Of a stretch of DNA of 64,000 bases, positions 1 to 21,141 are shown piece after piece. The translations under genes and the position numbers were made by a program. The stretch spans positions 12,964 through 76,963 of the IMG/VR virus record IMGVR_UViG_3300037424_001593; one strand, 5' to 3'. This DNA is from a virus. Taxonomy: Duplodnaviria; Caudoviricetes. The notes beneath the pieces were generated by a model, which was not told the origin of the DNA, did not search any database, and was given only the letters and a program-made list of their open reading frames with translations. The stretch's first letter is position 1. Every line of letters begins with the position of its first letter.

Positions 1-218
1 ATCGGCGACGCGATCACATGCGTGAGACGTACGGGAAACTTCTCTGCGTTCGAAAACGTCGCGCCGTCGCCGTTATACACGGGCGGCGTCGAAACGTCAG
101 TGTCGAATGTCGAGAAATCGAGGAAGTCGTAGTAGAAGCGCGGCTCGATGAGCACGCCCTTACCGTGGTTCACCGCGGCGAACGCAACGAGCTCTGCAAA
201 CGTTTTGTGCTGCGACAT
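1..218 (-). CDS. Putative minor capsid/jelly-roll-like protein, paralog of 222..1412 (runs off window edge)
   Basis: Manual translation from ATG at 218: MSQHKTFAELVAFAAVNHGKGVLIEPRFYYDF...NAEKFPVRLTHVIA, matching EPR...NGEKYPIIFTHVI of the 396-aa neighbour. Confidence 0.7.
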   Translation of the reverse strand, partial: MSQHKTFAELVAFAAVNHGKGVLIEPRFYYDFLDFSTFDTDVSTPPVYNGDGATFSNAEKFPVRLTHVIASP

Positions 219-221
219 GGA

Positions 222-1412
222 TCAGGCCTCGACAGCGGCGTAACCGCAGAAGGAGATGTAGAAAAACGTATTGAGGTCGTCGTCTTCGCCTATGCCGAGC
301 GGAGCGTTGAGGACACCTTGCTGGAGTTGCACGTCAAACGCTTCACCGGGCGCAAGCGTAAGCGGTCGCGAAAGACGTGACGCAAACGCCGGTGTCATTG
401 TCGGGCTGACGATCGAAAGCGGTGCGCCGTCTCGCCACCAGTAGGCCTGCGTGCCCGCGTTGCGCGTGCGCACCTTGACGGGCGTGGTCATCGAGAGCGG
501 CCCCGCAGTAGCGCGCGACGTCTCGTCGATCGAACGCTCATCGAACGTGATTGCGAGACCACCCAGGTTAGTCGGCACGTTGTAACTTGCCTTCTGCCTC
601 AACATCTCGCGCGGCGAAAGCTGCTGTCCAGGCGGATAATTTTGCGCTTCCGCGCCGCCCGTGTATCCAGCGTAGAACGTGATTGTGGGCGGCAACTCAC
701 CGCCTGAGGTGAGAAACTGCGTGAGCGCGTCTGCATACGGCTGATAGCGCTGCGTTGCCGCTGCCACAGAGAGTTGTGCGATGCTCACTGCCTGCCGTGT
801 GTACGTCATCTGCGGCCAGTTCGCAGGCGTCCCGGGTGCAGTCGGTGTGTACAAGTTGATGTCTGCCGTCGGCGTGGCTGCCGTCGTATCGACAAGCGTT
901 GGTACGCGCGCGCCGAGCTGAATCTCGAGCATTGCATCCGCAGGAAGCACAGGCGGAAGCTCGAAGTCCCAGGCACAGCGATTCACCGTCGGGCGATACC
1001 ACGTCGGGTTTGCTGTAAGAAGCATCGGATTGGTTGCAAACGATGCCGGATCGAGAGGCTCCGCTGCCGGAACAGGCTCGAGCAACATCGGCGCGTAGTG
1101 CTTGCTGTAGCGCGGCCCTCCGGCAGTTGCGATGGAGAGCCCGATACTCGCGCCTGCACGCTGCACGGTCGTCGTGAGCCCACCTTCGGTCACCCACTGC
1201 ATGATTACGTGGGTGAAGATGATGGGATACTTTTCGCCGTTGTAGAGCGTGTTGGGATCAATCGGCGTAGACACGCTATACAGGTTCGAGCTTGTCCGCG
1301 ACAACGTCGCTGACCACAACGCGCGCGGCTCGTAGTAAAACCCCGGCTGCGGCTTGAGGAGCTCGTTCGCGGGCAGGGCGAGCAGGTTTTGCTGTCGTGC
1401 GTTGAGCTTCAT
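222..1412 (-). CDS. Putative capsid-related (large jelly-roll-like) protein, 396 aa
   Basis: Beta-strand-like alternation; C-terminal L.RPLTL.PGE.F.VQL...ISFCGY echoes the L..P..I...E.F.V...L.G ending of the three upstream paralogs. Confidence 0.55.
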   Translation of the reverse strand: MKLNARQQNLLALPANELLKPQPGFYYEPRALWSATLSRTSSNLYSVSTPIDPNTLYNGEKYPIIFTHVIMQWVTEGGLTTTVQRAGASIGLSIATAGGPRYSKHYAPMLLEPVPAAEPLDPASFATNPMLLTANPTWYRPTVNRCAWDFELPPVLPADAMLEIQLGARVPTLVDTTAATPTADINLYTPTAPGTPANWPQMTYTRQAVSIAQLSVAAATQRYQPYADALTQFLTSGGELPPTITFYAGYTGGAEAQNYPPGQQLSPREMLRQKASYNVPTNLGGLAITFDERSIDETSRATAGPLSMTTPVKVRTRNAGTQAYWWRDGAPLSIVSPTMTPAFASRLSRPLTLAPGEAFDVQLQQGVLNAPLGIGEDDDLNTFFYISFCGYAAVEA

Positions 1413-1443
1413 CTCGGAACCTTACCGTAGAGCGGAGAAACAA

Positions 1444-1478
1444 GAAACCCCTCGAACACCGCATGCTCGAGGGGCTTC
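1444..1478 (-). terminator. Intrinsic terminator-like hairpin after the three small capsid paralogs
   Basis: CCCCTCGA/TCGAGGGG stem; minus strand continues TTTCTTGTTTCT. Confidence 0.55.
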
Positions 1479-1514
1479 ATCGGTGCTCGAGCCGAGCTCG
1501 ACCTCACGAAGAGA

Positions 1515-2195
1515 TCAGGCCACCGGACGACGCTTCATGCCGTCGAGCCACCAGCGAAGACGGATCGCCTGATTCAGGTCGATCATCGTGTTGTACGTCT
1601 TGCACTGCAGGTAGAGGTTGCGGTCACTCTCGATGTAGATCGGGAGATTCAGCATCCACTGGTTGTTCGCACTGACGCGACCACCTGTGCCGACGTCGTA
1701 CGCTGAGGCGCTGTCGACGACCTCCGCATACGAGGTGCCGTGGACCACGACGCCGACCGACTGCGGGATCCCGCTGAAGGGCTGGCGAAGCTGGGGCTTG
1801 CTCTGGTTCGCGCCCACGTAGAGCTCGACGACGACGTCGCGCTCGAGCACGAGCAGATTGTGCCGCGAGACCATCGGGATGTCGGCGGGGGAGCCGATGT
1901 CCGCAGCCTGCTCCGGCGCGGCGGTGAGGCCGAACGCTTCGTAGGTGACGCCGTACACGACGAAGGCTTCGTCGTAGTTCGTGCGTGCCTTCGTGAGCCA
2001 GTTCGTATCGTTGTCCGTCGAGTTGCGGGGCGCGAGACCCTGCGACGAGACCGGATTACCCGACACGTACTGGAATGCACGGAGGTTGAGCTTGACGCCC
2101 GCCGCGAACTCCATGACGGAGTACTGGGGGTAGTGCAGCCACTCGTCGAGCTGGATGGTGCTGCCGTCGTAGAGTCGAAGATCGCGGATTGCCAT
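1515..2195 (-). CDS. Putative single jelly-roll major capsid protein paralog 3 (226 aa)
   Basis: Shares LRLYDG..DEW..PQYS, DTN, L..PI.I and C-terminal RLR..LDG.KRRPVA pattern with 2214..2933 and 2956..3699. Confidence 0.6.
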   Translation of the reverse strand: MAIRDLRLYDGSTIQLDEWLHYPQYSVMEFAAGVKLNLRAFQYVSGNPVSSQGLAPRNSTDNDTNWLTKARTNYDEAFVVYGVTYEAFGLTAAPEQAADIGSPADIPMVSRHNLLVLERDVVVELYVGANQSKPQLRQPFSGIPQSVGVVVHGTSYAEVVDSASAYDVGTGGRVSANNQWMLNLPIYIESDRNLYLQCKTYNTMIDLNQAIRLRWWLDGMKRRPVA

Positions 2196-2213
2196 GGTGG
2201 TGTCTTCCTCGAA

Positions 2214-2933
2214 TCAGGCGACGGGGCGCTTGTGATCGCCGAGAAGGTGGATGCGCAAGCGAATGCGCGCGTCTGCCGCAGAAGAGCCAGTGAAGGCCAG
2301 CGCGGAGGGCGAATCGATCGCACCGGTCGGCGCGATGAAGCGCGCCCGGAACGTCTCACCACCCTGGATGAAGAGGGGCGACGCGAGCTGCCGCACGCCC
2401 TTGATGCTCGTCGAGCCGTTGTTGCCGACGATGTAGCCTGCCGCGCCGGAGAATCCGACACCGCCCGCCGTGCCGCTCTCCGCGCCCGAACCGGCTGCGA
2501 AAAACGAGACCGGAACGCGGAGGTATTCCTTCACGCCCGCGATGAGGAAGCTCATGATGAGCGAGTCCTGAATGCGGAGCATGTTGCGCAGACCGACATC
2601 GGGGAAGATCTCGTTGTCCGCACTCGTCATGAGCGGCGCCTCGCTCGGCGTGCCCACATTGATGCTGTAGAACTCGATGCGGATCGCTCGGATGAGCATC
2701 GCTTCGTTTTCCGGCAGCTGTCCACCCTGACCCTGCAGGTTGGTGTCGGCGTACGTCGCGTTGCGCTGCGCCGCGCCCGGGATGGCCTGGTTCAGGCCGT
2801 AGGAGAAGGCGTCGAGCGTCGTGAACGAGCCCGTGCCGAGCTCCACGGTCGAGTAGAGACCCTCCGCCGTGGTCCAGTCGGCCGGCGTCATCACGCGGCC
2901 ATCTGGATATCGAATCTTGAGTAGCTGACCCAT
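2214..2933 (-). CDS. Putative single jelly-roll major capsid protein paralog 2 (start at MGQLLKIRYPDG)
   Basis: RYPDG..DW..GLYS, DTN...GQLP.NE..LI, ends RLRIHLLGDHKRPVA. Confidence 0.6.
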   Translation of the reverse strand: MGQLLKIRYPDGRVMTPADWTTAEGLYSTVELGTGSFTTLDAFSYGLNQAIPGAAQRNATYADTNLQGQGGQLPENEAMLIRAIRIEFYSINVGTPSEAPLMTSADNEIFPDVGLRNMLRIQDSLIMSFLIAGVKEYLRVPVSFFAAGSGAESGTAGGVGFSGAAGYIVGNNGSTSIKGVRQLASPLFIQGGETFRARFIAPTGAIDSPSALAFTGSSAADARIRLRIHLLGDHKRPVA

Positions 2934-2955
2934 GGTTCGCTTCTTCCCTTCCCGA

Positions 2956-3699
2956 TCAGCTGACGGGCTTCTTGTAGAGGCCTTCGAGGCACACACGCAC
3001 TCGATAGAGGCGCTGCGCGTTCGCGGCCGGAGAACCCACAGCGTTTGCGGTGAGACCGATGTTCAGGGCCTCGCTCGTGGGATTACGGACCTGGATTTCG
3101 AACTTCTCCTGGCCGCCGATGTGGATCGGGACCGTGAGACAGCGCGAAGCCTCCGCCGAAGGGATGCCGCTCGCGCCCGTCGGGATCGCCGACTGCGCTG
3201 CGACCGTACCGGCTGCGCCGGCCTGAGAGAACACACCGAAGCCGGTCGGCCAGTAGGCGAACGGTGCACGGTGCTTGAGCTTCTGGCTGATCAGGATCTC
3301 GAACACGGTGGAGCGGAACAGACGTCCGAGCTGCCACGGTGAGGGGAGCGGATCGAAGGCCAGCGTCTCGACAGCGGTCGTCGCGTTGCCGGCCGAGCTC
3401 ATCACGAGCGCTGCGAACTCGGGCTTGACGGAGTAGATCAGGAACTCCTCCGTCGAGCTGAGGCCGTTCGGCGTCGAGATGTTCGTGTCGGCTTCGGTCG
3501 CCGTGCGCTTCGTCGTGATGTTCTGGGTCGAAGAGACCTGATCGCTCACGACGTAGTTGAAGAGTGGGATGATCTCGTCCGTCGCGCCATTCATGATGTC
3601 GCAGGTCGAGTACAGCGGCTGGTCGGTCCAGTCCACGAACGCGACTTGCTGGCCGTCAGGAAGGCGGAGCGTCGTGATCTGGTTGATGGGTGAGAACAT
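2956..3699 (-). CDS. Putative single jelly-roll major capsid protein paralog 1 (247 aa)
   Basis: RLPDG..DW..PLYS, DTN..EEFLI, ends RVRVCLEGLYKKPVS. Confidence 0.6.
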   Translation of the reverse strand: MFSPINQITTLRLPDGQQVAFVDWTDQPLYSTCDIMNGATDEIIPLFNYVVSDQVSSTQNITTKRTATEADTNISTPNGLSSTEEFLIYSVKPEFAALVMSSAGNATTAVETLAFDPLPSPWQLGRLFRSTVFEILISQKLKHRAPFAYWPTGFGVFSQAGAAGTVAAQSAIPTGASGIPSAEASRCLTVPIHIGGQEKFEIQVRNPTSEALNIGLTANAVGSPAANAQRLYRVRVCLEGLYKKPVS

Positions 3700-3719: not shown

Positions 3720-4346
3720 TCAGACGCGGAAGCCCGGCGTACCGAAAGCCTTCATGTTGAGCCCAGCGTCACCGAGACCCTGGAGCTGGATGTTGGTCCC
3801 GTAGTCCCCGCTGAGACCGCGCATGCCCGCGATGGAATCAGGGCGGTGACCCTGCGGCCAGTTCTCGAGCACCGTGGCACCGAGGCCGTTCATCTGCGGC
3901 ATGACCATCCCCATGCCGGACGCGCTGCCGTACTCAGGGACGATCGCGCCGAAGCCCGCCGTGCCCGTCGCAGCCGGGGCGATGGCGAGCGTGCCCTCGC
4001 GGACGTACGCGCCAGCACCTGCGAGCAGGGCCGTGGTCGTCGCAGCGATGGCTGCGCGGTGACCCTGCTTGAGGCCGTACGCCATGCTCGCACCGAGGAG
4101 CGCGCCCGCGGCCATGCCGATCGCGGGGGCGTGTCGGTTGAGCATCGCGCCGGTCTGCGTGCCGGGCGAGAGCTTGGGCACGACGAAGCGGCGCACGAGC
4201 CAGATGGCTCCTACGGCCGTTCCACCGCCGACGAGGATCGGAAGCGCCGTGCCCACGACCGTGTTGGAGTCGAAGAGGCCGTTGACGCCCCGACGAACCT
4301 CGATGATGTTTCCGAATCCGCGCCGTGAGCGCTTACGCTTTGCCAT
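3720..4346 (-). CDS. Virion membrane protein with basic N-terminus and several xG[LFM]G motifs
   Basis: MAKRKRSRRGFG; about three hydrophobic helices; MNGLG, LQGLG; preceded by late motif. Confidence 0.7.
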   Translation of the reverse strand: MAKRKRSRRGFGNIIEVRRGVNGLFDSNTVVGTALPILVGGGTAVGAIWLVRRFVVPKLSPGTQTGAMLNRHAPAIGMAAGALLGASMAYGLKQGHRAAIAATTTALLAGAGAYVREGTLAIAPAATGTAGFGAIVPEYGSASGMGMVMPQMNGLGATVLENWPQGHRPDSIAGMRGLSGDYGTNIQLQGLGDAGLNMKAFGTPGFRV

Positions 4347-4365: not shown

Positions 4366-4376
4366 TCTTATACCCC
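4366..4376 (-). promoter_or_regulatory. Putative late promoter GGGGTATAAGA
   Basis: One of seven GNGGKATAAGA copies; 19 nt upstream of ATG 4346. Confidence 0.7.
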
Positions 4377-4409: not shown

Positions 4410-4676
4410 TCAGCGCTTGCGAGCCTTCTTCGCCGTCTTCTTGGCGCCGAAGAGCTTGATGGCATTGCGCTGGCCCTTCTTCGTCGAGAAGCAGCGCTTC
4501 TTGCCGCTCTTGAACTTCACGCAGTACTTCTTCGCGGCCTTGGTCGCCTTGCGCGCCTTCTTGGCGGGCTTGCGCTTCGTGCGCTTGCGACGACCCGCGA
4601 GACCCGCGAGAGAGTTGATGGAACGCCCCGCGGGGTCACCCGAAGCGCGCACTGCGGTGCATCCACAATCTGCCAT
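4410..4676 (-). CDS. Lys/Arg-rich histone-like putative core protein
   Basis: LAGLAG followed by RRKRTKRKPAKKARKATKAAKK. Confidence 0.65.
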   Translation of the reverse strand: MADCGCTAVRASGDPAGRSINSLAGLAGRRKRTKRKPAKKARKATKAAKKYCVKFKSGKKRCFSTKKGQRNAIKLFGAKKTAKKARKR

Positions 4677-4678
4677 GA

Positions 4679-5050
4679 TCATCCTCGTTTCCACACGAAG
4701 TATGCGCCTACCCCGATCAAGGCAACCGTGCCGAGAGCGAGGAGCACAACGTTCTTTGTCTGTTGGCTCTGCAGGTGCGCGTATCGCGCCCAGAGATCTG
4801 CGTAACTGCGCTGCGCGCCAACGAGCTCCGAAGCAACGAACCCTGGGTCGTTCTCGAAGTTGTCCACACGCGTGCCGAAGAGCTCGATGTCCTCGAGCAA
4901 GCGCGACACCTCGGGCGAGCTCGAGCGTGATGCGAGCTCCTGCGCGAGCAGGTGCAGTCGCGTCGTCTCGCTTGAGAGCGCGCTGATGTCGTTCGCGAGA
5001 TCATCCGCCGCAGAGCCGAAGCCTCGCCCAGGGAAGTACGGAACGATCAT
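4679..5050 (-). CDS. Small virion protein with C-terminal TM anchor (start MIVPYFPGRGFG)
   Basis: Helical body; ends LLALGTVALIGVGAYFVWKRG. Confidence 0.7.
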   Translation of the reverse strand: MIVPYFPGRGFGSAADDLANDISALSSETTRLHLLAQELASRSSSPEVSRLLEDIELFGTRVDNFENDPGFVASELVGAQRSYADLWARYAHLQSQQTKNVVLLALGTVALIGVGAYFVWKRG

Positions 5051-5889
5051 CCGCGCCCCCGCTTCGTCCAGCGCTTGAACACCCAGACGCCGAAGATCCC
5101 AGCAACCACGGTCGATCCGAGGATAAGCGGCACGCGATACGGCGAAGGCCGATGCACGGGCGCTGTCACGTCGATCGCTTCGCCCTGAATCACATCCTGA
5201 GGCGCCGCGGTGCTCGAGCCCGGCACCGTGACCGGATACCCGTTCGGCACCTGACTCGCGGCTTGGAGCGCGAGGAAGAACGCGTTGCTCACGCTCGTAC
5301 CTGTCGCCGTAGGCGCAGGACCCGTCGTGGTCGTCGTAGTTGTGGCTGTTGCGACGCTGTTTGTGCGCGAGCTCGTGTCTTCGACGCCCACGCTCTGCGC
5401 GTAGGAGTCGATGTTCCAGAGCGCTTCGCCGTACGTGGTGCCTTGCGCAGCGGCGAGAACACGCTGCCGCGCGCGCGCAGCCCAATCTGTGGGTGCGCCC
5501 GCGCTCACGCAGTTGACCTGTCCGCGCAGCGCCGTGATGTTGTTCGCGACCTTCGCAGGCGTGTCGTTCATCGCTGCGTTTGCGACCGTGAGCAGATCCT
5601 TACGACAACTGCTCGCGCTCGGCGTCGTGCCTGAGAGCCAGAGCATGTAGAACGCGGCGTTGGCGGACTTGCGCCCCCACACACCGTCTGCGCTGAGCAG
5701 CGGCGGCGGCACAGGCCCGTTCAACTGGATCACACGTGCAACGAAATCCGGAAGCGCGTTGTTGTACGCGCCCTGAAACGACGCAATGAGCGCCTTCTGC
5801 ACATGCGCAGGCGCACGATCACCCATGCCCAGCACGGCTGCCCATGCGGACTCAGTGAGCGTGAACACCTGCGATTGCGAGAACGACAT
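5047..5889 (-). CDS. C-terminally anchored virion protein with possible peptidoglycan-binding motif
   Basis: LSADGVWGRKSANA resembles the L..DG..G..T..A PG-binding signature; Thr-rich linker; TM plus KRWTKRGRG. Confidence 0.6.
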   Translation of the reverse strand: MSFSQSQVFTLTESAWAAVLGMGDRAPAHVQKALIASFQGAYNNALPDFVARVIQLNGPVPPPLLSADGVWGRKSANAAFYMLWLSGTTPSASSCRKDLLTVANAAMNDTPAKVANNITALRGQVNCVSAGAPTDWAARARQRVLAAAQGTTYGEALWNIDSYAQSVGVEDTSSRTNSVATATTTTTTTGPAPTATGTSVSNAFFLALQAASQVPNGYPVTVPGSSTAAPQDVIQGEAIDVTAPVHRPSPYRVPLILGSTVVAGIFGVWVFKRWTKRGRG

Positions 5890-6062
5890 CAGCTCTTCTT
5901 ACGGCGCTTCTTGGGGGGCTTCGAGACCGACGTAATGCGGCCCTTGCTGTCGCGGCACACCTTACGGCGCACCGTGCCGATCTTCTGGACCTTGCACTTG
6001 ACCGTCTTGCCGACGCGGGCCTTACGCTTGGTCGCCTTCTTGCGCTTCTTCTTGGTAGCCAT
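5889..6062 (-). CDS. 57-aa very basic protein (not in ORF track)
   Basis: MATKKKRKKATKRKARVGKTVKCKVQKIGTVRRKVCRDSKGRITSVSKPPKKRRKKS; stop overlaps start of next gene. Confidence 0.65.
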   Translation of the reverse strand: MATKKKRKKATKRKARVGKTVKCKVQKIGTVRRKVCRDSKGRITSVSKPPKKRRKKS

Positions 6063-6092: not shown

Positions 6093-6452
6093 TCACTTGG
6101 GGCAGACGGGGCGACCCTTGTGGATGCGGCAGCCCTTCTTGAGAGCCTTCGCAAACGAGACGCGCTTCATGCCCTTCGGCACGCTGCGTGTCGGAAGACC
6201 TGCACCGGTTGCACCGGCCTCGGCTGCCTTTTTCGAGCAGACGTAGACGTTCTTCTCGCCCTTGACGCGCTTGCAGCCCTTGCGGAGCTTGCTGCCGACC
6301 TTCGCGATCGACTTGTGCACGCAGACCTGACCCTTGCGGGGCTTGCACTTCGCTTCGCGCTCGAGACGCTTGCTGGTCTGAATCCGCGCGTAGTACGGAT
6401 CGACGTCGATGTCGCCCATCCCTCGCCTGCGTCGCCGTGTTCGCTTTGCCAT
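6093..6452 (-). CDS. Basic Cys-containing putative core protein
   Basis: MAKRTRRRRRGMGD; internal repeat KLRKGCK/KALKKGCR; late motif upstream. Confidence 0.65.
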   Translation of the reverse strand: MAKRTRRRRRGMGDIDVDPYYARIQTSKRLEREAKCKPRKGQVCVHKSIAKVGSKLRKGCKRVKGEKNVYVCSKKAAEAGATGAGLPTRSVPKGMKRVSFAKALKKGCRIHKGRPVCPK

Positions 6453-6489
6453 CGTGAGCACCTGTGGTCGGTGTTGAACCGTTCTTTTT

Positions 6490-6507: not shown

Positions 6508-8721
6508 TCAGCGTGTTCGCTTGGCGAACAGCGCAAGGCCGCCCGCGAGCAGCAGACCGCCGCCGATGAACATCCAGGGGATCGAGCTCGATCCAGGCAC
6601 CACACTCGGCATGGTCGCCGCCTGCGCGATCGCGTTCTGCAGATCGAGCGGCGTCGGCATCGGCGTAGGCGTGCTACCGCTCGCCGTAGGCATCGACGAG
6701 CTCGTTGAAGTCGTCGCAGCATCCCCGCTCGAGGTGATGATGGGCAGCGAGCTCGGGCTCGACGCAAGTGCATTCTGATTGAGCGCCACCGCCGTGATCA
6801 CAGGATTCGCAACGACACTGCCATCCGCCGCAGGCGCGAGATTCGGCTGCACCGTCACCGTAGTAACGGCTTGCTGCCCACCCATCGCGAGCTCACCTGT
6901 GATGTGTGAGAGCGCCGTGATGAGCGCGGCTGGAAGCGAGCCTCCGCGGTCGAACGTCGCACACGGCACGTCGCTCAGCGTGCGCAGCACGAGCGGCTGC
7001 ATCACATCCGCTTTGTTGCCTGCCTTCTTCTTGCGGCGCATGGCAACAAGCGACGTGATGCCTGTTGCAAGCGTCGTTGCCGCAAGCGTGACACCGAGTG
7101 CGATCGGGTTACTGCTCGCGACCGCAGTCACTGCGCCGCCCACCTGCAGAATCGTCTGCTGTGCAGCCTGCGCTTTCGCATCTACCTGCGCCTGAGCAGC
7201 ACCGACCTGATACTCTTTCGCCTCGTCGATACTGAGGTCGATCAAACCGCGTTCGGCCCAGTATGTGACGTGATTGCTGATGTACCAGAGCGTCGCGTTG
7301 ATCGTGTGGTCCGCGAGACTCGTCTCGAGGATGGAACGAATCCAGCCCTCTGCCATACGGGCTGCGCCGTAGATGGACGTGTACGTGTACCACTCGTAGT
7401 CGTCCTCGCGGACAACGCGCGCTTCCCAACGACGCCACACGAACGTCGTATCTTCGGGATTACTGTGCAGGCACTGTTGATACCAAAAATGCCACGCACC
7501 CGAACGCAAATCGTTTTTGATTTGCGTCGTTGTACGGTCGGTCGGCATCAAGTTCTGTGGGCGAACACGATCAGACTCATTGCCCAGCATGTCGTTTGCG
7601 GTCCGCGAATCGTATTGCGGCGCGAAGTCACCCGTGAGCCAGCCCGTCGGCCCATCTGCGTCGTAGAAACCCATCCACAGAGGGCCCACAAAGAGCTTCG
7701 TGACCGTGCGGTCGATGTGCTTGAGCCACGGATCCTTGGCGACTTCCTTGTCACCGTAGTCCACGGGTTGCGGCGCGCCGCGGAGCTCGTTGAGCACGCT
7801 CTGCATGAGCGGCGGGAGCGCGCGATCCGGCAGCAGCACACCCGGCTTGCCGTCCGCATCCGTCATCGTCGTCGTCGGGTTCGCGGGCAGCAAAAACTGC
7901 GGCTGCACATTCGTCGCGAAGTACGCGAGCGAGACCCAGCTATAGACGATCGTGAACCAGTCGGCGGTGAGCCGCGATGCGTACTCGCGCTCGACGCTGC
8001 CCATCGGCATCGAGAGCCCGCTGTACGCTGGCTTGACGACGAGAAGTTGCGCGAGCGCTTGCTGAGCTCGAGCGTAGATGTCCGCGCGGATGCCGACACG
8101 CGCCGTGTTCTCTGCACTGCACGGAAGAAGCGCCGACGGATACTGGATCATCGCCCAGGTCTGGATGTCGGCCTTGAACTGCTGTGCCCCGTCAGGGAAA
8201 AGCTGAGGCTTGACGAGCGTCGCGACGGTGTCGTTGAAGCTCGCCGTGTACGCATCGACGACACCGCGCGCCTGCACCGTCTGCGCGTCGTACGTGATCT
8301 TCGTCACGTCGCGCGTTTCGGTGGGCGCCACGATCGTCGTCATGAGCTGGTTCGCGTTCGAGATGTTCTGTTGCGCCTGTGCGCTGAACTTCGCCGCGAG
8401 ATCTGCATCGCCGCTCTTCTGCGCACTCGCAGCAAACGCTGCCGCCGCAGCAGCAATCTTCACCTGCTCTTCAGCCTTCTGCTGAATCAACGCTGCTGTA
8501 GGCGAGCCTGTTTGCGCAGTCGCTACGACCTGCGCACGCGGCGCGCTGTACGTGTTCATCGCCGTACCCGCAGCAATCGCCGCTTGCTGTTGTGCAATCG
8601 CTTCTTGCCGCGCCGCTTCTGCAGTCTTCTTCGCTGCCTCTTTCTTGCGCCGATCGCGCGGAAGACCGAGACCCGCACCAAGCCCGTTCGCACCCTTTGG
8701 TGGAACGATGCGCGCTTGCAC
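6508..8721 (-). CDS. Large membrane-anchored virion protein (about 737 aa; probable GTG start at 8721)
   Basis: N-terminal ANGLGAGLG, Ala/Gln helical region, internal hydrophobic hairpin, C-terminal TM plus KRTR; ORF-track extension to 9240 overlaps another gene. Confidence 0.65.
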   Translation of the reverse strand: MQARIVPPKGANGLGAGLGLPRDRRKKEAAKKTAEAARQEAIAQQQAAIAAGTAMNTYSAPRAQVVATAQTGSPTAALIQQKAEEQVKIAAAAAAFAASAQKSGDADLAAKFSAQAQQNISNANQLMTTIVAPTETRDVTKITYDAQTVQARGVVDAYTASFNDTVATLVKPQLFPDGAQQFKADIQTWAMIQYPSALLPCSAENTARVGIRADIYARAQQALAQLLVVKPAYSGLSMPMGSVEREYASRLTADWFTIVYSWVSLAYFATNVQPQFLLPANPTTTMTDADGKPGVLLPDRALPPLMQSVLNELRGAPQPVDYGDKEVAKDPWLKHIDRTVTKLFVGPLWMGFYDADGPTGWLTGDFAPQYDSRTANDMLGNESDRVRPQNLMPTDRTTTQIKNDLRSGAWHFWYQQCLHSNPEDTTFVWRRWEARVVREDDYEWYTYTSIYGAARMAEGWIRSILETSLADHTINATLWYISNHVTYWAERGLIDLSIDEAKEYQVGAAQAQVDAKAQAAQQTILQVGGAVTAVASSNPIALGVTLAATTLATGITSLVAMRRKKKAGNKADVMQPLVLRTLSDVPCATFDRGGSLPAALITALSHITGELAMGGQQAVTTVTVQPNLAPAADGSVVANPVITAVALNQNALASSPSSLPIITSSGDAATTSTSSSMPTASGSTPTPMPTPLDLQNAIAQAATMPSVVPGSSSIPWMFIGGGLLLAGGLALFAKRTR

Positions 8722-8753
8722 AAGGTGCGGCTGTGTTCCGCTGCGGAAGATCC

Positions 8754-9617
8754 TCACCGAAGCACCACGATCCCGAGCACCGCAGCGACCGCGACGCCCC
8801 CAGCAACGTACATCCACGTCTTCGACGGCTCCGCAGCTGCAGGCGCTGCAGGACCCGCAGACGGCATATCGCCCGGAGGCGTCGTCACCGATGCGCTGTT
8901 CGTCGTCGCGCCTACGCGCTGCGTCTGCTGAATCGACTGCGTGAGCCCCGACGCGACGTTGCGCCAATCCATCGCAGTCTGACTCGCGGTGCCGACAGTC
9001 CCTGTGCGCGCTTCGGTACGCGCGTCGCAGATGTTCGTGTACAGCGACGTGAGAATGTTCGTCGTCGCGCCCGCGATCTGCAGGTTCTGTCGCGTATCCA
9101 CAGTGAGACCCTGTGAACCGACGACACCACCGCTCGTGGTCGTGGTCTCGCTGCGGAAACCGCCGCTCCCGAGCGTAGTGAGAGTGCCCCCAATCGCCCC
9201 GAGGATGCCCTGCGCAGCTTGCGCGCCCGTAGATGTGCATGCGCGCCCGTCGCCGCCGAGACCACGAAAGCCCGAGCGTGAGAGCCCTGTGCGCGCACCA
9301 TGAGCTGCAGCGAGCGACGCAATGCTCGCACCAACACGCGACGGCGCATCGTCGGCGAAACCGCTCGAAGGACGATAGACGCGCGCGCTCGGATCGACAC
9401 GACCCTCGAAGAGCACGCCAGGTACGGTCTGCGGCGGAGGCGTCGGCACGTTCTGCCGGCGCAGATCAGTCATCCGCATGTGCGCGGCGTTCGCTACGTT
9501 GCGCACAGCCATCGGCATGCGCCCAGCCGCACCATTGTCTTCGAAGAACGCACGCGGGGGACCGGGACGCGATACCGTGATCGAGAGGTCCGGAGCTCGA
9601 GACTTCATGACATGCAT
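8754..9617 (-). CDS. Virion protein with C-terminal TM anchor
   Basis: FRGLGG motif; ends WMYVAGGVAVAAVLGIVVLR. Confidence 0.65.
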   Translation of the reverse strand: MHVMKSRAPDLSITVSRPGPPRAFFEDNGAAGRMPMAVRNVANAAHMRMTDLRRQNVPTPPPQTVPGVLFEGRVDPSARVYRPSSGFADDAPSRVGASIASLAAAHGARTGLSRSGFRGLGGDGRACTSTGAQAAQGILGAIGGTLTTLGSGGFRSETTTTSGGVVGSQGLTVDTRQNLQIAGATTNILTSLYTNICDARTEARTGTVGTASQTAMDWRNVASGLTQSIQQTQRVGATTNSASVTTPPGDMPSAGPAAPAAAEPSKTWMYVAGGVAVAAVLGIVVLR

Positions 9618-11903: not shown

Positions 11904-13046
11904 TCACGGGCGCAGCGCCATGTCGAGCGGATGCGGCTCGATCTGAAGCATCGTGAAGTCGATGTTCCACGCCGTGGTCACGCCCGTGTTCACAACGGTA
12001 ACGCCGACCGTGTCGAGTGCCGTAGCCGCCCATGAGCTCGCATACGGTCCGCTCGAGACCATGTCCACCGAAACGGACTCGGTGACGCCTGCGACAGGGC
12101 CACTGCCGTCGAAATGCACGCTGACGACAGGTGTCGCGCCTGCGACAGGCGACGTGAACACCCAGGTGATCTCGAACGTTGCGCCACCGGTGCGCGCATC
12201 GAGCACGCCGACAGCATTCGCGGCGAATCCAGGCGTGAAGAGCCCGGGGACACCCGCACCACCTTCGTCCGGGTCGAGGTTGGTGAACGCAGCCTGGTTG
12301 CTGTCGTTCTGTGCAGCGATGCCGAGGATGCGCGTGCCCGCAGCATTGCTAATGCACAGGCCGAGCAGGTTGCGTCCTGCGTTCGTGACGTCCGAGAACG
12401 TCGCGAGGCAGCGCGCGCGGATCACGAATCGATTCGTCGTCGGTATCGTGAAGTCGTTGATGGCGAAGAACACGCCGCCGACATCGAGCTCGGTCGATGC
12501 GAATCGAAGCGCACCACCGCTTACGCTGCGCGTGAGTCCCGCGATGTTCGCGCCGACGTCCATGTCGATCGCAGCGTCGAACTGCGTGACATCCGCGCCG
12601 TTCCAGCGCCACAGCACGTTTCCACCCGGCGCCCATTGCGCGCCGTCGTAGATGAGCGAATCACCGAGTGCAGGCGCAGCTGCGCTGACAGTAACACCTT
12701 GAATCGTCGTCGCATCACCACCGCCTGCACCGCTGTAGATGGCGGGGAGCGGCGTGATGGCGCTGAAGACCGTGGGATAGGCGATCCCGCGGCGAGCACA
12801 GGCGTCGATGAGCTCAGCGTCGGTATACGCGAGCGGACAGAGCACACCGTTGTGCCCGAGCGATTCCCACTGTTGGATGATCTGCGCGATCGTAACCGCG
12901 TCGGACGTGTTGATCGCGAGCTCGACAGGCTGATCTGTCGAGGTGAGACCGTAAATGTGCGCATACGGATCGACTGCACCGGGCTGAAGCGTGCCCGTGA
13001 ACGAGACAATCCATCCGCCACGCCATTCATACGCTGTTGTAGGCAT
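11904..13046 (-). CDS. Putative spike/receptor-binding protein (380 aa)
   Basis: About 100-aa N-terminus paralogous to 37711..38349; fibre-type motif IQGVTV...P..GDSLIYDGAQWAP; beta-rich distal domain. Confidence 0.6.
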   Translation of the reverse strand: MPTTAYEWRGGWIVSFTGTLQPGAVDPYAHIYGLTSTDQPVELAINTSDAVTIAQIIQQWESLGHNGVLCPLAYTDAELIDACARRGIAYPTVFSAITPLPAIYSGAGGGDATTIQGVTVSAAAPALGDSLIYDGAQWAPGGNVLWRWNGADVTQFDAAIDMDVGANIAGLTRSVSGGALRFASTELDVGGVFFAINDFTIPTTNRFVIRARCLATFSDVTNAGRNLLGLCISNAAGTRILGIAAQNDSNQAAFTNLDPDEGGAGVPGLFTPGFAANAVGVLDARTGGATFEITWVFTSPVAGATPVVSVHFDGSGPVAGVTESVSVDMVSSGPYASSWAATALDTVGVTVVNTGVTTAWNIDFTMLQIEPHPLDMALRP

Positions 13047-13085: not shown

Positions 13086-13652
13086 TCACATCGCGAAGTC
13101 GCGGTACTGCTTCGACCCCGCGTACTCCCAACCGGGAGTAGAGCCTTTGACCGTCGGATCAAGCGCAACGAGTGGACCCCCGCGACGTCCACGCGAGACC
13201 ATCGTGTAAACGTGTTGCCAGACTTCATTGTCTGTGCTGATCACTCGCGCGAGCGTATTCGAGAAGCCAAGCGCCTTCAGTAAAGAGCACAGAACGATCG
13301 TGCTGTCGTCGCAATCGCCGAGGCCATAGAACAATGTTCTACGCACAGTGCAAAACAGATCGTAGTCGGGAGGATCGTGTTCGTACTCGACGTTGAGCAC
13401 GCAGAAATTCCACACCGTGTTGATCACGCAGGTATCATTCGTGATGTTCGTACACGGCGCACAGCGGTGAACTTTACCCCACGCAGTGACGCGGTCACGT
13501 CCTGTGAAGAGCCCTCGCGCGAGCTTGTGTGTTTCCGGATCTGCGAGTGATTTTTGGACCTGTCGGCGGATCAACCCGACGTGGTCGTCGAGGTTGTTGG
13601 TCTCCCAGATACGTGCACCGGGGTCGTTCAAATCGATGGCGCGCTTGGACAT
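13086..13652 (-). CDS. Transglutaminase-like cysteine protease/peptidase
   Basis: GDCDD (Cys), WQHVY (His), ALDPT (Asp) in the order of the transglutaminase-like superfamily triad. Confidence 0.8.
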   Translation of the reverse strand: MSKRAIDLNDPGARIWETNNLDDHVGLIRRQVQKSLADPETHKLARGLFTGRDRVTAWGKVHRCAPCTNITNDTCVINTVWNFCVLNVEYEHDPPDYDLFCTVRRTLFYGLGDCDDSTIVLCSLLKALGFSNTLARVISTDNEVWQHVYTMVSRGRRGGPLVALDPTVKGSTPGWEYAGSKQYRDFAM

Positions 13653-13671: not shown

Positions 13672-13805
13672 GGCAAATACGCGGCATACGCGCCGTGGAT
13701 GTCTTGACGGCCAGAGACATGAGGGACTAGCCTCGCGATCATGCGAGTGCCTGCACGTTGCGCAACGGGAGTATGCGCGCGAATCCTTGTCCTCGCGGAG
13801 CGTGC

Positions 13806-15122
13806 ATGAGTGAGTTCGTCCCGTACGCCGAAGGTCCGTTGAGCTGGATCCCCGGTGATGTCCAAGCTGCATTCCCGCAATCGGGACCAATCCACCGCTA
13901 CATGCACTGGGCCACGCAGTGCACAGATACGCCGCCGCTGTTTCACCTCGGTGCCATGCTCCCGACGTTCGCGACACGCCTTGCGTGGACAGGCGTGCGT
14001 TTGCACAACGACCACCCGTTGCGTCTTTGGTGTCTTCTCGTCGCGGGCGCTGGTTTCGGTAAGAGCACGCCGCTCAAAATGGCTCAGCGCTTCGTCGTCG
14101 ATCACCTCGAGCAGACGAAAGATACGCCCCACGAGCAACCGCTCGTTCGCTTCGAAGGCACGGCGCAGGGGCTCTTCTCGGTTTTGCAGGGCACATACAT
14201 TCCAGAGCTCGAGCAAGAGATCGCGCTCGTGCACACCGACGAGGCGGCACCGATCCTCACGCAACGCTATCAAGACAGCGCGGGGAAGTTCTTCTGCCAA
14301 CTCTACGACGGCGAGCGCATGGAACGGCAGGTACTGCACCTTCAGCGCGCAGTCGCGAAGGGGGAATCGAAGAAGCCGGTACTGCACCGCCCTACGATTT
14401 CCGCAGCTTTTGCGTGCACGCTCGACGAGTTCGAGACCACGGCGTCGAAAAACGTGGTCGGAAACGGACTTTTATCGCGTTTCCTCTCGTTTCACGCCAT
14501 GCCGACGAAGTTGATGTATCGACAACTCGCACATGAATCAGGACGTACAGCGGTTTTGGATGCGTGGAACGAGTGGTTTGGTGGGCTGCGCGGAACATTG
14601 CTTTTAGACCCTAAAACACAGCTTGTGAGCTCTGTCGGCGCAGAAAACATGCTTCAAACACGTGTTTTTGACCCGCTCGCTGCGCGTTTTGCCAAAAATC
14701 CGAGCGATGCGCTCTTCGCAATCGCACGTCGTGGCATGGCGCACATCAACATAGTCGCTGGCCTATATGCCTTGAATCGTTTGAGTTTCGAGATCTCTGC
14801 GACCGATATGCTCCAAGCCATCGAACTCTTCGAGCACACGCTCACGTTCAATCGTGAGCTTGTTCCGCGTATGGGTAAGGGTGAGGCATTCCAGCGCCAC
14901 GACGCCCTCTTGCAGGCTGCGAAGGCTGGTGGTGCTAGTGGGGTAGCCAAGAGCGACTTCTACCGCCTTCTGAAGGGTGTCTCGAAGCCGGAACTGGACA
15001 TGCTGCTGGACACCCTCGTTGACTCTGAAGAGCTTGTGCTGGAAACCGTTCGCGGTGGGCGGGGTAGACCCTCACAACGGTTCTATTTACCTGAACATCA
15101 ACCCAGTAAAACAGCCAACTGA
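13806..15122 (+). CDS. DUF3987/YfjI-like replicative helicase (no primase domain seen), C-terminal winged helix
   Basis: PPLFH..A.L motif, Walker A AGAGFGKS, Walker B VHTDEA, GLLSRF, C-terminal GRGRP...FY. Confidence 0.75.
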   Translation: MSEFVPYAEGPLSWIPGDVQAAFPQSGPIHRYMHWATQCTDTPPLFHLGAMLPTFATRLAWTGVRLHNDHPLRLWCLLVAGAGFGKSTPLKMAQRFVVDHLEQTKDTPHEQPLVRFEGTAQGLFSVLQGTYIPELEQEIALVHTDEAAPILTQRYQDSAGKFFCQLYDGERMERQVLHLQRAVAKGESKKPVLHRPTISAAFACTLDEFETTASKNVVGNGLLSRFLSFHAMPTKLMYRQLAHESGRTAVLDAWNEWFGGLRGTLLLDPKTQLVSSVGAENMLQTRVFDPLAARFAKNPSDALFAIARRGMAHINIVAGLYALNRLSFEISATDMLQAIELFEHTLTFNRELVPRMGKGEAFQRHDALLQAAKAGGASGVAKSDFYRLLKGVSKPELDMLLDTLVDSEELVLETVRGGRGRPSQRFYLPEHQPSKTAN

Positions 15123-17094: not shown

Positions 17095-17432
17095 ACGAGC
17101 TCGACATCAACGGCTGGATCCTCTGGATCATCCTGACCCTTGGGTCCACAGTGTTCGTCACACGGAGCATGTGGATGCGCTTGTTCCGCGTGACGGTACT
17201 CATCAAGCTACGCACACCCGCAGCGTACTGCGGGGGCTGCGTGGGTTTCTGGTTCGGTCTGGTAACCGCACGTTGGTTTCCGCTCGAATACACACCTTAC
17301 GATCTACCCTACGTAATCAGCGCCCTTGCGGGTATGCTTCTCGGCTATGCCTTCGGCGGCGCTACAGACTACGAAGGCGCGCTTGTGAGCGTTGAAAAGC
17401 TGCGCGAGCTCGATCAAGAAGCAGGCAAGTAG
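17091..17432 (+). CDS. Small membrane protein with CxxC-GFW motif (DUF1360-like)
   Basis: Three hydrophobic segments; YCGGCVGFWFG. Confidence 0.55.
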   Translation: MNELDINGWILWIILTLGSTVFVTRSMWMRLFRVTVLIKLRTPAAYCGGCVGFWFGLVTARWFPLEYTPYDLPYVISALAGMLLGYAFGGATDYEGALVSVEKLRELDQEAGK

Positions 17433-17433
17433 C

Positions 17434-19374: not shown

Positions 19375-21141
19375 TCTCGGTGGGTACGTACCGGACGCGG
19401 CTGGTGGCGTCTACAGCTCGATCGCTGCGAAGCGAAAGTCCTCGAGCCCCTCGCCGAAGTTCCGGGTATCACGGTTGCTGCACAGCGCGAGGTGCAGAAG
19501 ATCGCCCAGGGTGTGTCCGTCGTGGCGCACCGTACGGCGTTCTTCACCGAAGCGATGCAGACGTTCATCGAGGCGACGGGCATCGAGCCTGATACGCTCA
19601 ACGACGATGCTGTGCTCGAGGAGCTCTGGACGCCCAAACGCCCGCTCCGGACATACCAGGAGGAGGGCGCACGCTGGCTCGTCGCTGGGCGCGGGGGCAT
19701 CCTCGGCGACGCGATGGGCATCGGGAAGAGCTCCCAGGCCGTCGTCGCCGCCAAGACGCTCCAGGAGCACGCACACGGCGCGCCGGTGCTCATCGTAGGG
19801 CCGCAGTTCACACGGGATGTGTGGCGCCGGGAGCTCATCGCGCTCGGGGCGATGACCGAAGACGAAAGCGACGACGGTCGAACGTGGTTCGTATGCAAAG
19901 GTCGAAACCCGGAGCCCGGAACAGACGATGCGATGTTCGGTGCGCGTTTCGTCTTCTGTCACTACGACGTGCTCGAGGCATGGCGGCACATCCTGAGTCG
20001 CCCGCTCCGCATGCAGAAGTTCTGTTGCGCCATCGTAGACGAGCTCCACTGGATCCGAAATCCGCTCAGCAAACGGGGTGCTGCGACGCGCGCCGTAGTG
20101 ACTTTGATACCTCAGCGTATCGGGCTTACCGGCACCATCTTCGTGAACAAGGTCGATGACCTCTGGGCGCTTTTCACAACCATCTGCGGCGAGGGCTCTT
20201 TCGGCACACATTTCGCGTTCAAGAGTCGGTACACGCAGTATGACCGCGGAAAATACGGCTTCGTATCAAAAGGGACACGGTGCGAAGCAGAGCTTCAGGC
20301 GCGGCTCGAGGCCTGCTATTTACGCCGTACACTTGCTGACGTCGGCACGCAAATCCCGCCCTTGACGCGCACGCTCTGGACGTTTGACCCGGGCAACGCG
20401 CCCATGGAGGCCGAGCTCAAGAAGTACGTGGGCAAGGATCGCCGCGTCGCGCTCCAACACCTGCGCGAGCACTTCCGGCGCGGCGCGTTCGGCACGGAGA
20501 CCTTGAAGGTTCTGCACGCATGGCGACACTGGACGTCGCGACAGAAGCTCGAGCTCGTCGCAGAACGCGTCGCCTCGTCTTTTTCTGAGGGTGAGAGCGT
20601 CATCGTGTTCGCGTGGCAGCGCGCGACCGTAGAGCGCCTCGCCGAGCTCATCAGCAAGGCCATCGCGCGCACGGGCGAGGTCAAAAAGAACCAGCTCGAG
20701 ACGCTCAAGCGGATCTTCATCGTGCATGGCGGCTACTCACAGGACGCGCGCGATCAGACCGTGCAGCAGTTTCAGCGCTGCGAAGGGCCCGCGATACTCT
20801 GCTCGACGAACGAGGCGCTCAAGGAGGGCGTCACGCTCACAAAGGCGCGTCTTGGCATCCTCGTTGACCTCGAGTGGATCCCTGCAAGCATGCTGCAGCT
20901 CGAGGCGCGCTGGCATCGCCTCGGGCAGACGCTCCCGTGCGAGTCCATCTGGTGCGTCTGCACGGACAGCGCAGACGAAGTCATCACCGAGCACCTCATG
21001 GATAAAGCGCTCGCAGAAGCGGAAGCACTCAACAATACGACTGCCCAAGATGCATTTGCTCAAGTGGGTCTTGACATGACGACAGAAACGCGAGAAGAAA
21101 CTCTAGCGCAAAGGCTACTCGATAAGTGGGGTGGGCTGTGA
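19372..21141 (+). CDS. SNF2-family helicase/ATPase
   Basis: GDAMGIGKS, IVDELH, GLTGT, EARWHRLGQ. Confidence 0.85.
   Translation: MSRWVRTGRGWWRLQLDRCEAKVLEPLAEVPGITVAAQREVQKIAQGVSVVAHRTAFFTEAMQTFIEATGIEPDTLNDDAVLEELWTPKRPLRTYQEEGARWLVAGRGGILGDAMGIGKSSQAVVAAKTLQEHAHGAPVLIVGPQFTRDVWRRELIALGAMTEDESDDGRTWFVCKGRNPEPGTDDAMFGARFVFCHYDVLEAWRHILSRPLRMQKFCCAIVDELHWIRNPLSKRGAATRAVVTLIPQRIGLTGTIFVNKVDDLWALFTTICGEGSFGTHFAFKSRYTQYDRGKYGFVSKGTRCEAELQARLEACYLRRTLADVGTQIPPLTRTLWTFDPGNAPMEAELKKYVGKDRRVALQHLREHFRRGAFGTETLKVLHAWRHWTSRQKLELVAERVASSFSEGESVIVFAWQRATVERLAELISKAIARTGEVKKNQLETLKRIFIVHGGYSQDARDQTVQQFQRCEGPAILCSTNEALKEGVTLTKARLGILVDLEWIPASMLQLEARWHRLGQTLPCESIWCVCTDSADEVITEHLMDKALAEAEALNNTTAQDAFAQVGLDMTTETREETLAQRLLDKWGGL

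Follow-up and report, generated by a model that had tools for sequence, protein, structure and literature searches.

What kind of particle does a virus build when five adjacent genes encode putative jelly-roll proteins and no recognisable head or tail gene accompanies them? The window, a stretch of 64 kb of DNA, is part of a virus record of 76,963 bp (77 kb) that is complete, carrying a 127-bp terminal repeat, and the original prediction read the five genes at the left end of the window as tandem capsid-like paralogs. With a probability of roughly 0.68, these genes make up an outer-shell module conserved across a group of bacterial viruses that is so far undescribed, whose members are large (about 64-88 kb) and are not tailed phages; no published description of such a group or shell module was found. 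The module and its flanking signals are laid out as follows.

1..218, minus strand: g16, putative large shell protein of 355 aa, of which the first 72 codons lie in the window (genome 12114-13181; ORF, AF2 model)
222..1412, minus strand: g17, putative large shell protein of 396 aa, a paralog of g16 (hhalign, homologs)
1444..1478, minus strand: GC-rich 16-bp hairpin with a U-rich tail, between g18 and g17 (terminator scan)
1515..2195, minus strand: g18, small single-jelly-roll protein of orthogroup C, 226 aa (alignment, three-clade tree)
2214..2933, minus strand: g19, small single-jelly-roll protein of orthogroup B, 239 aa from the MGQLL start, in an ORF that stays open to 2996 (alignment, three-clade tree)
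2956..3699, minus strand: g20, small single-jelly-roll protein of orthogroup A, 247 aa (AF2 model, PDB matches)
3720..4346, minus strand: g21, Gly/Ala-rich protein of 208 aa with one hydrophobic helix (hydropathy, synteny)
4366..4376, minus strand: late-promoter-like motif GGGGTATAAGA, 20 nt upstream of g21 (motif count)

The three small proteins are 27-29% identical to one another, and the 36 invariant columns of their alignment take in PDG, DW, YS, DTN and a C-terminal R.R..L.G...PV, bearing out the PDG, DW, DTN and C-terminal motifs that had been read from these ORFs. That this goes beyond chance is shown by a g18-g20 profile search, which at E<=1e-3 picked out 273 representatives of clusters from 1.84 billion, and by the five-gene order recurring in eight other loci. 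A tree of the small family (148 rows) resolves into three clades of 59, 51 and 38, the anchor clades having supports of 91, 79 and 92. Since each clade has one gene per locus, all three genes have been retained; the small proteins are the product of an ancient triplication, kept as three orthogroups.

From this family, g20 was the protein modelled with AlphaFold, and the resulting AF2 model (pLDDT 92.2, pTM 0.88) is confident and has the fold of a single jelly roll. In the PDB, the six best matches of g20 all come from the coats of viruses that are tailless and membrane-lined: SPV1 VP4 (6oj0_A) comes first, with Z 7.4-7.9, an rmsd of 3.5 and 137 of 178 residues aligned, and ranks 2-6 are taken by P23-77 VP17 (Z 6.4 and 6.0), HHIV-2 (6.2), SH1 (6.2) and HCIV-1 (6.1), scores which, like those of g16 given below, are all below or near 8 and according to the tool may mean a common arrangement only. 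A second structure search, independent of Foldseek, left the top four unchanged. As such, the suspected likeness to the coats of P23-77, SH1 and HCIV-1 was well placed, these being among the best matches together with HHIV-2 and SPV1. Jelly rolls occur also in lectins, PHM, cement proteins and fibre proteins, and weaker matches of g20 include the KHP40 cement protein (Z 5.1), Pam1 (Z 5.1) and a fibre of phage 7-7-1 (Z 5.4-5.5). A profile of 102 sequences, compared with all PDB sequences, returned nothing but an scFv (E 0.22), and no significant sequence similarity was found between the shell proteins and any solved or named capsid protein.

The order of g21, the three small and the two large genes is kept in seven IMG/VR viral contigs of 30-87 kb, and also in one chromosome of the Gemmatimonadota, where the copy comprises only about 13 kb with host genes on both sides. 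Within the late module these genes are the best conserved, at 35-57% identity. The transcription unit is opened by g21, which is conserved beside the shell genes in six loci (L003-L007 and L011), and the motif GGGGTATAAGA upstream of it occurs seven times in the window, where 0.03 occurrences would be expected. Furthermore, downstream of the third small gene there is a hairpin in 8/8 loci (the window and seven related ones), with differing sequences; the one at 1444..1478 is a probable intrinsic terminator or attenuator.

As for the large family, g16 and g17 prove at profile level to be homologs from end to end (hhalign prob 99.2, E 2.5e-19, 280 columns), and g16 has 41 homologs. The motif EPR/N.EK.P...THVI noted earlier in the two larger ORFs recurs here as EPR...NGE.(F/Y)P(V/I)..TH (BLASTP E 0.002). 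The segment 1..218 had been taken for a larger paralog in itself; it is indeed homologous to g17, but represents merely the start of a gene that reaches 849 bases past the left edge of the window. No significant sequence relation links the small with the large family in profile hhalign (prob <7%). The notion of five tandem paralogs therefore holds within the three small and within the two large proteins, whereas the five together form two families that, going by the models, have the jelly-roll fold class alone in common. Here g16 represents the large family: its AF2 model (pLDDT 86.8, pTM 0.87) shows a capsid-type jelly-roll core, with matches spanning residues 22-355, and an inserted beta domain at about residues 130-276 that matches the P domain of birnavirus VP2. 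The two beta domains are nested, the core being built from both chain ends with the insert between them. Capsid jelly rolls matched by g16 are those of EhV-201 (Z 8.2), PBCV-1 (Z 8.0), Faustovirus (Z 7.8), PR772 P3 (Z 7.0), the SPV1 penton protein VP10 (Z 6.8) and HCIV-1 (Z 6.5), as well as birnavirus VP2 (Foldseek E 6e-7).

Could the large proteins, then, be the true major capsid proteins? In a PRD1-type (Bamfordvirae-like) virus, g16 and g17 would form trimers in the manner of double-jelly-roll (DJR) proteins, leaving penton, spike-base or minor shell roles to the small ones. We regard this as improbable. The best matches of g16 do include the jelly-roll domains of the DJR coats of EhV-201, PBCV-1, Faustovirus and PR772 P3, aligning its insert with its shell part faintly suggests that it was duplicated internally (hhalign E 4.6e-4, prob 33%), and PRD1 P3/P2 clusters are reached through the ESM Atlas, at scores of only 0.76-0.77. 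However, the beta domains of g16 are nested and not in tandem as in DJR proteins, and to any of these just one barrel aligns (Z 7-8.2, about 110-135 residues). Moreover, the conserved hairpin upstream of the large genes suggests a lower output than that of the small genes, and an A32-type ATPase is absent.

This last point belongs to a broader absence. In a six-frame HMM search of three complete genomes (the 77-kb record and two complete relatives), Terminase_6N, TerL_ATPase, Phage_portal, Phage_capsid, Pox_A32 and FtsK_SpoIIIE were all without a match, while control genomes were positive; in these three genomes the search thus detects none of the Caudoviricetes hallmarks (large terminase subunit, portal and HK97-fold major capsid protein). 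Likewise, neither Pfam and PHROGs, applied to every sizeable ORF, nor NCBIfam brought up any family of terminases, portals, HK97 capsids or tails, and PHROGs head, packaging and tail families are absent from the genome except for weak tailspike matches. The lack of portal, terminase and HK97 capsid genes that had been remarked upon in 64 kb hence extends to the whole genome, including the 13 kb left of the window, whereas the FtsK/HerA/A32 packaging ATPase expected to lie there is absent from the entire genome. Proteins with a Walker A motif are solely replication or recombination enzymes (a DUF3987 helicase, AAA_24 and SNF2). Double-stranded DNA icosahedral viruses this large are unusual in lacking a packaging ATPase. 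The PolA, ThyX and sigma factor attributed to the virus are all present, albeit with a weak match for sigma-70 region 2, and helicases are encoded as well.

These searches also bear on whether the virus might simply be a tailed phage (Caudoviricetes), with terminase, portal, HK97 capsid and tail proteins diverged past HMM detection, and with the five jelly rolls acting as decoration or cement, fibre or receptor-binding proteins. Cement and fibre jelly rolls are indeed among the weaker matches of g20 (Z 5.1-5.5), and a pectate-lyase-like protein has weak tailspike PHROG matches, which would fit a podovirus too. Relatives in ESM Atlas clusters are labelled Uroviricota, probably by automatic taxonomy; a late protein of 910 aa could in principle be a tape measure; and an HMM-divergent HK97 or portal fold may sit among the late proteins of 910, 380, 352 and 272 aa or in g17. 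Nevertheless, we find a tailed phage unlikely: the large terminase subunit is one of the phage proteins that are easiest to detect, and neither TerL nor portal nor HK97 capsid appears in six frames of the three complete genomes, the P-loop proteins are confined to replication, and coat proteins rather than cement proteins are the best matches of g20. The combination of jelly-roll shell genes with no detectable head, portal, tail or packaging-motor gene therefore probably marks an undescribed group of large tailless phages.

Further late genes that bear on the particle lie upstream of the shell module.

4410..4694, minus strand: g22, protamine-like basic protein of 94 aa with 33 K/R and 3 D/E (composition)
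5889-6062 and 6093-6461, minus strand: two more very basic small proteins, of 57 aa (27 K/R) and 122 aa (37 K/R) (composition)
13086..13652, minus strand: g31, transglutaminase-like protein of Cys-protease fold, 188 aa, at the head of the virion module (Pfam Transglut_core E 1.4e-5)

Besides these, the late module encodes an M23 peptidase with a C-terminal anchor, as well as lectin-like and pectate-lyase-like spike candidates. Many of its proteins have hydrophobic helices according to hydropathy, and several downstream of the shell genes have a single one, as the initial remark on single-TM proteins had it. That the five proteins form no virion shell, and are secreted or surface carbohydrate-binding beta-sandwich proteins of a mobile element, is very improbable: PHM, lectin, glycosidase beta-sandwich and discoidin domains do match at Z 5-8 and the chromosomal copy is confined between host genes, but viral coats rank top among the matches, none of the five proteins has a signal peptide or hydrophobic helix, and in complete viral genomes the block is part of the late operon, preceded by the late-promoter motif and with membrane, basic and lytic virion-type genes as neighbours.

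So what would a large tailless phage build from these genes? Most likely, g18-g20 would be the major capsid proteins and would assemble together into pseudo-hexameric capsomers, by analogy with the single-jelly-roll coats of SPV1, P23-77 and SH1. The large proteins would most likely be less abundant parts of the shell, either tower-bearing capsomer subunits or vertex (penton) proteins, and the conserved hairpin between the small and large genes may set the ratio of their products. The remainder of the late module would fit a tailless particle with an internal membrane, and it is from gene content that we infer both "tailless" and "membrane-containing" for the 77-kb virus. Since the genome is without a detectable packaging ATPase, its DNA is probably condensed by basic proteins into a core, for which g22 is, by composition, a candidate, and membrane and shell would then assemble round this core, as in SPV1.

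SPV1 has no packaging ATPase (PMC8812541), just as none is detectable in the 77-kb virus, and possesses a nucleoprotein core (PMC8812541, PMC8459092). Its DNA is bound by a basic nucleoprotein, inside a membrane and under a single-jelly-roll shell, and the three protamine-like proteins would be the analogous components here. However, SPV1 is a 20-kb virus of an archaeal (Sulfolobales) hyperthermophile without its own polymerase or replication enzymes, while the present virus has 77 kb with PolA, ThyX and helicases, and bacterial-type features (sigma-70 region 2, PolA, and a relative in a Gemmatimonadota chromosome). SPV1 has one hexon and one penton protein against three plus two, and despite VP4 being the best PDB match (Z 7.4-7.9, a range that may reflect a common arrangement only), no sequence similarity between the two viruses is detectable.

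In the Helvetiavirae/Singelaviria (P23-77, SH1, HHIV-2, HCIV-1), genomes of 16-31 kb encode two coat proteins, adjoined by a conserved FtsK/HerA-type packaging ATPase (PMC12714852). The Helvetiavirae comprise the families Sphaerolipoviridae, Simuloviridae and Matshushitaviridae, whose barrels stand vertically in pseudo-hexameric capsomers over an internal membrane. The model of g20 has their single-jelly-roll fold, small and large (tower-bearing) shell proteins are likewise encoded side by side, and a tailless particle with a membrane is probable here, judging from gene content. In contrast, the 77-kb virus has three plus two shell proteins rather than two, and no sequence homology to VP16/VP17 or VP4/VP7; it is not typical of the P23-77/SH1 group because the packaging ATPase is absent from its genome. 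The original prediction of a single-jelly-roll lineage of more than 64 kb with an expanded capsomer set thus stands as to the modelled jelly-roll folds and the size, but not as to a single family, nor with a packaging ATPase. Neither circumstance named as counting against it, folds other than jelly rolls or HK97 capsid, terminase and portal genes elsewhere on the contig, was borne out by the models and searches. At the sequence level, membership in any described family was not found, and in build the virus is closer to SPV1 and SSIP-1 than to the P23-77/SH1 group.

More tentatively, and with somewhat less than even odds, these viruses of 64-88 kb could typify a new lineage of high rank among bacterial viruses, with a membrane-lined icosahedral shell of five jelly-roll proteins at T well above 49 and motor-free packaging round a protamine-condensed core, distantly linked to SSIP-1 and SPV1. 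If true, bacteria are hosts to jelly-roll viruses that exceed all described ones severalfold in size, and encapsidation without an ATPase is more than an archaeal curiosity.

Like the 77-kb virus, SSIP-1 is a virus of bacteria whose genome is large by the standards of its class. Three of its structural proteins, gp45-47, are adjacent and measure 210-256 aa, and the viral predicted structures that best match the g20 model (Foldseek prob 1.00, E 2e-3, TM 0.34-0.47) belong to two proteins of 211 and 256 aa, which are the lengths of gp46 and gp47; by length only, these two, I1ZBH9 and I1ZBI0, would correspond to gp46 and gp47. No significant hhalign or profile-to-sequence similarity was found between the shell proteins and gp45-47, but when the 268 ORFs of SSIP-1 are ranked with a g17-family HMM, gp46, gp45 and gp47 take the first three places, a suggestive order with non-significant E values of 0.045-0.27. 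The AAA_25 ATPase of the SSIP-1 virion, gp40, has no counterpart in the 77-kb genome, and beyond the gene considered next, the two viruses have no further genes in common, bar a methyltransferase-like stretch. The structural protein gp34 of SSIP-1 matches g31 (BLASTP E 1e-11) and both match Transglut_core, g31 thereby having the character of the transglutaminase-like virion protein found in SSIP-1-like phages.

We interpret the gene block at the left end of the window as a module for a jelly-roll shell. The viruses concerned would be an undescribed group, bacterial, large and tailless, whose DNA is enclosed without a recognisable motor, a reading to which we give a probability of roughly two in three. 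Three small open reading frames within this block are true paralogs:

1515-2195, minus strand, small shell gene g18 (226 aa)
2214-2933, minus strand, small shell gene g19 (239 aa)
2956-3699, minus strand, small shell gene g20 (247 aa)

Their products are 27-29% identical and align with 36 invariant columns, among which are the shared motifs already picked out in the original prediction. The first 218 bases of the window are the start of a gene for a 355-aa large shell protein (g16), which crosses the left window edge. With the second large protein, g17 (396 aa), it has an N-terminal EPR...NGE.FPV motif in common (BLASTP E 0.002), and profiles built from the orthologs of each match over their full length (hhalign probability 99.2, E 2.5e-19, 280 columns). 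Profiles of the small and the large family show no significant similarity to each other in hhalign, and the set therefore consists of three plus two proteins; of the five paralogs that had been proposed, the kinship within each size class stands, but not the single five-member family. The profile of the three small proteins retrieved 273 cluster representatives (50% identity clusters) at E<=1e-3 among 1.84 billion proteins. The 247-aa protein had zero tblastn matches in 50,697 phage records, a 102-sequence profile of the small family found no relevant match among PDB sequences, and Pfam, PHROGs and NCBIfam assigned no family to the five shell proteins or their neighbours. An in-frame fusion of two small genes, considered for the related contigs L003 and L008, was rejected, as translation revealed a stop codon between them.

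The AlphaFold2 model of the 247-aa protein, based on an alignment of 102 sequences, is all-beta and confident (pLDDT 92.2, pTM 0.88). Foldseek of this model against the PDB gave no significant match, with the coat chains of SPV1, SH1 and HHIV-2 heading the list. A VIA search of 48,161 chains, which does not depend on Foldseek, was led by SPV1 (Z 7.4), HHIV-2 (Z 6.0), HCIV-1 (Z 6.0) and P23-77 VP17 (Z 5.8), and in a second-look alignment SPV1 was again best (6oj0_A, Z 7.9, rmsd 3.5, 137 aligned), followed at ranks 2-6 by P23-77 VP17, HHIV-2, SH1, HCIV-1 and once more VP17 (Z 6.4-6.0), ahead of every non-coat protein; all these values lie in the tool's 'middling' range, so that the jelly-roll fold class is established and homology is not. 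It is notable that the six best matches of the predicted structure are all single jelly-roll (SJR) coats of membrane-lined tailless viruses, as the original prediction of a jelly roll had anticipated. A joint complex prediction for the three small proteins scored 0.02, which has no bearing either way on their binding.

The prediction also holds for the large protein g16. In the model of g16, built from 41 homologs (pLDDT 86.8, pTM 0.87), some 110-135 residues drawn from both chain ends (22-355) align to capsid jelly rolls, namely those of EhV-201 (Z 8.2), PBCV-1 (Z 8.0), Faustovirus (Z 7.8) and PR772 P3 (Z 7.0), and further to SPV1 VP10 (Z 6.8), the HCIV-1 large coat (Z 6.5) and polyomavirus VP1 (about Z 6). 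The stretch of residues ~130-276 has a match of its own, the projection domain of birnavirus VP2, and VP2 is also the best Foldseek match of g16 (E 6e-7). The protein thus consists of a shell jelly roll into which an upper beta domain is inserted, and the 99% profile match between the two proteins suggests the same fold for g17. A PRD1-like scheme in which these large proteins form the major coat is one of the two main rival readings, and we consider it unlikely.

Support for a shell module also comes from its conservation. The order of a Gly/Ala-rich 208-aa protein (g21, 3720-4346, minus strand), the three small and the two large proteins is identical in all seven related IMG/VR contigs (30-87 kb; tblastn with all genome proteins), with identities of 35-57% for the small and 26-43% for the large proteins. 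These loci were found with narrower alignments, a single-protein query having retrieved none. In a tree of 148 small-family members, three groups of 59, 51 and 38 rows each contain exactly one gene per locus (anchor-clade support 91, 79 and 92); this makes the triplication an old one in which every copy has been kept, as would be expected of non-interchangeable subunits. The motif GNGGKATAAGA occurs seven times, against 0.03 expected:

4366, minus strand, motif copy
6490, minus strand, motif copy
10647, minus strand, motif copy
13661, minus strand, motif copy
34588, plus strand, motif copy
41954, plus strand, motif copy
51932, minus strand, motif copy

The first four of these belong to the virion module and each lie just 5' of a gene start, one of them 20 nt upstream of g21, the first gene of the shell transcription unit, which suggests a virus-specific late promoter. 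Within the unit, a hairpin follows the third small gene, and its position is kept in 7 of 7 other loci tested:

1444-1478, minus strand, 16-bp GC-rich hairpin with a U-rich tail, between the third small and the first large gene
L003:12194-12275, hairpin in related contig
L005:12159-12260, hairpin in related contig
L006:12149-12237, hairpin in related contig
L007:12229-12318, hairpin in related contig
L008:12210-12330, hairpin in related contig
L009:2305-2433, hairpin in related contig
L011:8744-8823, hairpin in the Gemmatimonadota chromosome

The sequences of these hairpins differ, while long, GC-rich stems (13-20 bp) recur and a U-rich tail is usual. As a terminator or attenuator, such a hairpin would skew abundance towards the small proteins and away from the large.

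The window covers bases 12,964-76,963 of a viral record of 76,963 bp. This record is rated complete and carries a 127-bp direct terminal repeat, which answers the question of completeness raised at the outset. All sizeable ORFs of the genome were scanned against Pfam, PHROGs and NCBIfam without a match to any terminase, portal, HK97 capsid, tail tube or sheath, tape measure or baseplate family, which extends to the complete genome what had been noticed in the window. HMMs of Terminase_6N, TerL_ATPase, Phage_portal, Phage_capsid, Pox_A32 and FtsK_SpoIIIE, searched in six frames, had no match in this genome or in two further relatives that are complete (69.5 and 80.6 kb), while control genomes scored positive. 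Large genomes among bacterial viruses are thought to be exclusive to tailed phages. The other main rival reading, a highly divergent tailed phage, we regard as improbable. An FtsK/HerA/A32-type packaging ATPase had been expected left of the window. Canonical Walker A motifs are confined to three proteins (DUF3987, AAA_24 and SNF2 helicase), so that no packaging ATPase is recognisable there or elsewhere in the genome. Two candidates were rejected: a 643-aa protein (17392-19323) as terminase, being low-complexity and coiled-coil with an acidic tail and no PHROG match, and the DUF3987 P-loop protein (13758-15122) as packaging ATPase, its family being a helicase module that as a rule forms part of fusions with Prim-Pol primases, and also with RepB primases.

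Among known viruses, SPV1 lacks a packaging ATPase and combines an SJR hexon (VP4) and penton (VP10) with a nucleoprotein core and an internal membrane (PMC8459092, PMC8812541). It is the nearest match in fold and logic, but differs in being archaeal, 20 kb in size and without sequence similarity. SSIP-1, at 43.8 kb the largest tailless membrane phage described, has been placed among those vertical single-barrel viruses that have two coat proteins (PMC4958249, PMC5332951, PMC6356626). In a library of predicted viral structures, the best two matches of the 247-aa model, at probability 1.00, were I1ZBH9 and I1ZBI0 (211 and 256 aa), which from their lengths and consecutive accessions would be SSIP-1 gp46 and gp47. 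Three structural proteins of SSIP-1, gp45-47, lie next to one another; the small-family profile showed no significant similarity to them in hhalign, and with an HMM of the g17 family they ranked as the top three of 268 SSIP-1 ORFs at non-significant E values (0.045-0.27). Both viruses have a transglutaminase-like virion protein (gp34 and window 13086-13652, E 1e-11), but the virion AAA_25 ATPase gp40 of SSIP-1 has no counterpart here. A methyltransferase-like protein (21126-21929, plus strand) resembles SSIP-1 29206-29451, inside the 2,319-aa structural protein gp43 (tblastn E 3e-7). Helvetiavirae have the same fold as the shell proteins here, but their genomes measure 16-31 kb and encode two coat proteins with a packaging ATPase beside them; their defining ATPase and sequence homology were both absent when tested in this virus.

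The jelly-roll-shelled viruses of bacteria and archaea described so far are small, and those with two SJR proteins have much smaller genomes (SH1 about 31 kb). Double jelly-roll phages stay below 20 kb (PMC8812541). Literature searches found no published description of viruses like the present ones. The original observation was largely right and its interpretation survived the tests it proposed, apart from the five being one family. If our reading is true, a widespread 64-88 kb jelly-roll clade, with its own PolA, ThyX and sigma factor (as predicted), five shell proteins and no packaging ATPase, would change the picture that large means tailed and widen the prokaryotic size range of this architecture. 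Through it the SJR lineage (realm Singelaviria) would gain a bacterial branch close to its SPV1/SSIP-1 base, and the motor-free enclosure of 77 kb of DNA would have a system for its study. Moreover, it draws attention to a kind of genome to which automatic pipelines give the label of tailed phage by default.

The late virion-type genes are all on the minus strand (genome 1,478-26,615; window up to 13,652), followed by the replication and early genes on the plus strand. The left arm codes for an M23 peptidase that bears a hydrophobic helix at its C-terminus, one concanavalin-like and one pectate-lyase-like protein, and additional hydrophobic-helix proteins. Basic proteins also lie in the virion module:

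between the shell genes and a 910-aa protein (6508-9240), three protamine-like proteins, of 94 aa (33 Lys+Arg), 57 aa (27 Lys+Arg) and 122 aa (37 Lys+Arg)

A 380-aa acidic protein in the same module (11904-13046, minus strand) has no family match and no counterpart in related loci, where a short gap is found instead; it may be a variable gene of host-recognition type.

Near-identical DNA is present in sediment metagenomes from two studies, and small-family members come from sediment and possibly soil metagenomes. A Gemmatimonadota metagenome-assembled genome also carries the shell-gene block in its chromosome (CP070815.1 1175012-1195938). There, a metallo-beta-lactamase-fold gene on one side and an ABC-transporter ATPase on the other leave it only ~13 kb, with no other genes of this virus within 40 kb. 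From this context it is no full prophage but either what remains of one or a related element of much smaller size. A tyrosine recombinase/integrase in the window (57052-57942, plus strand; Phage_integrase E 4e-12) and a relative's record classed as provirus make it likely that the group is temperate. The viral PolA (28423-31548, plus strand, 1,041 aa) has an N-terminal domain of the uracil-DNA-glycosylase superfamily, followed by 3'-5' exonuclease and polymerase. On the same Gemmatimonadota chromosome, ~1 Mb from the shell-gene island, a 1,503-aa open frame (G001:C1:2236668-2240819; L012, L014) has UDG, exonuclease and PolA segments resembling this polymerase.
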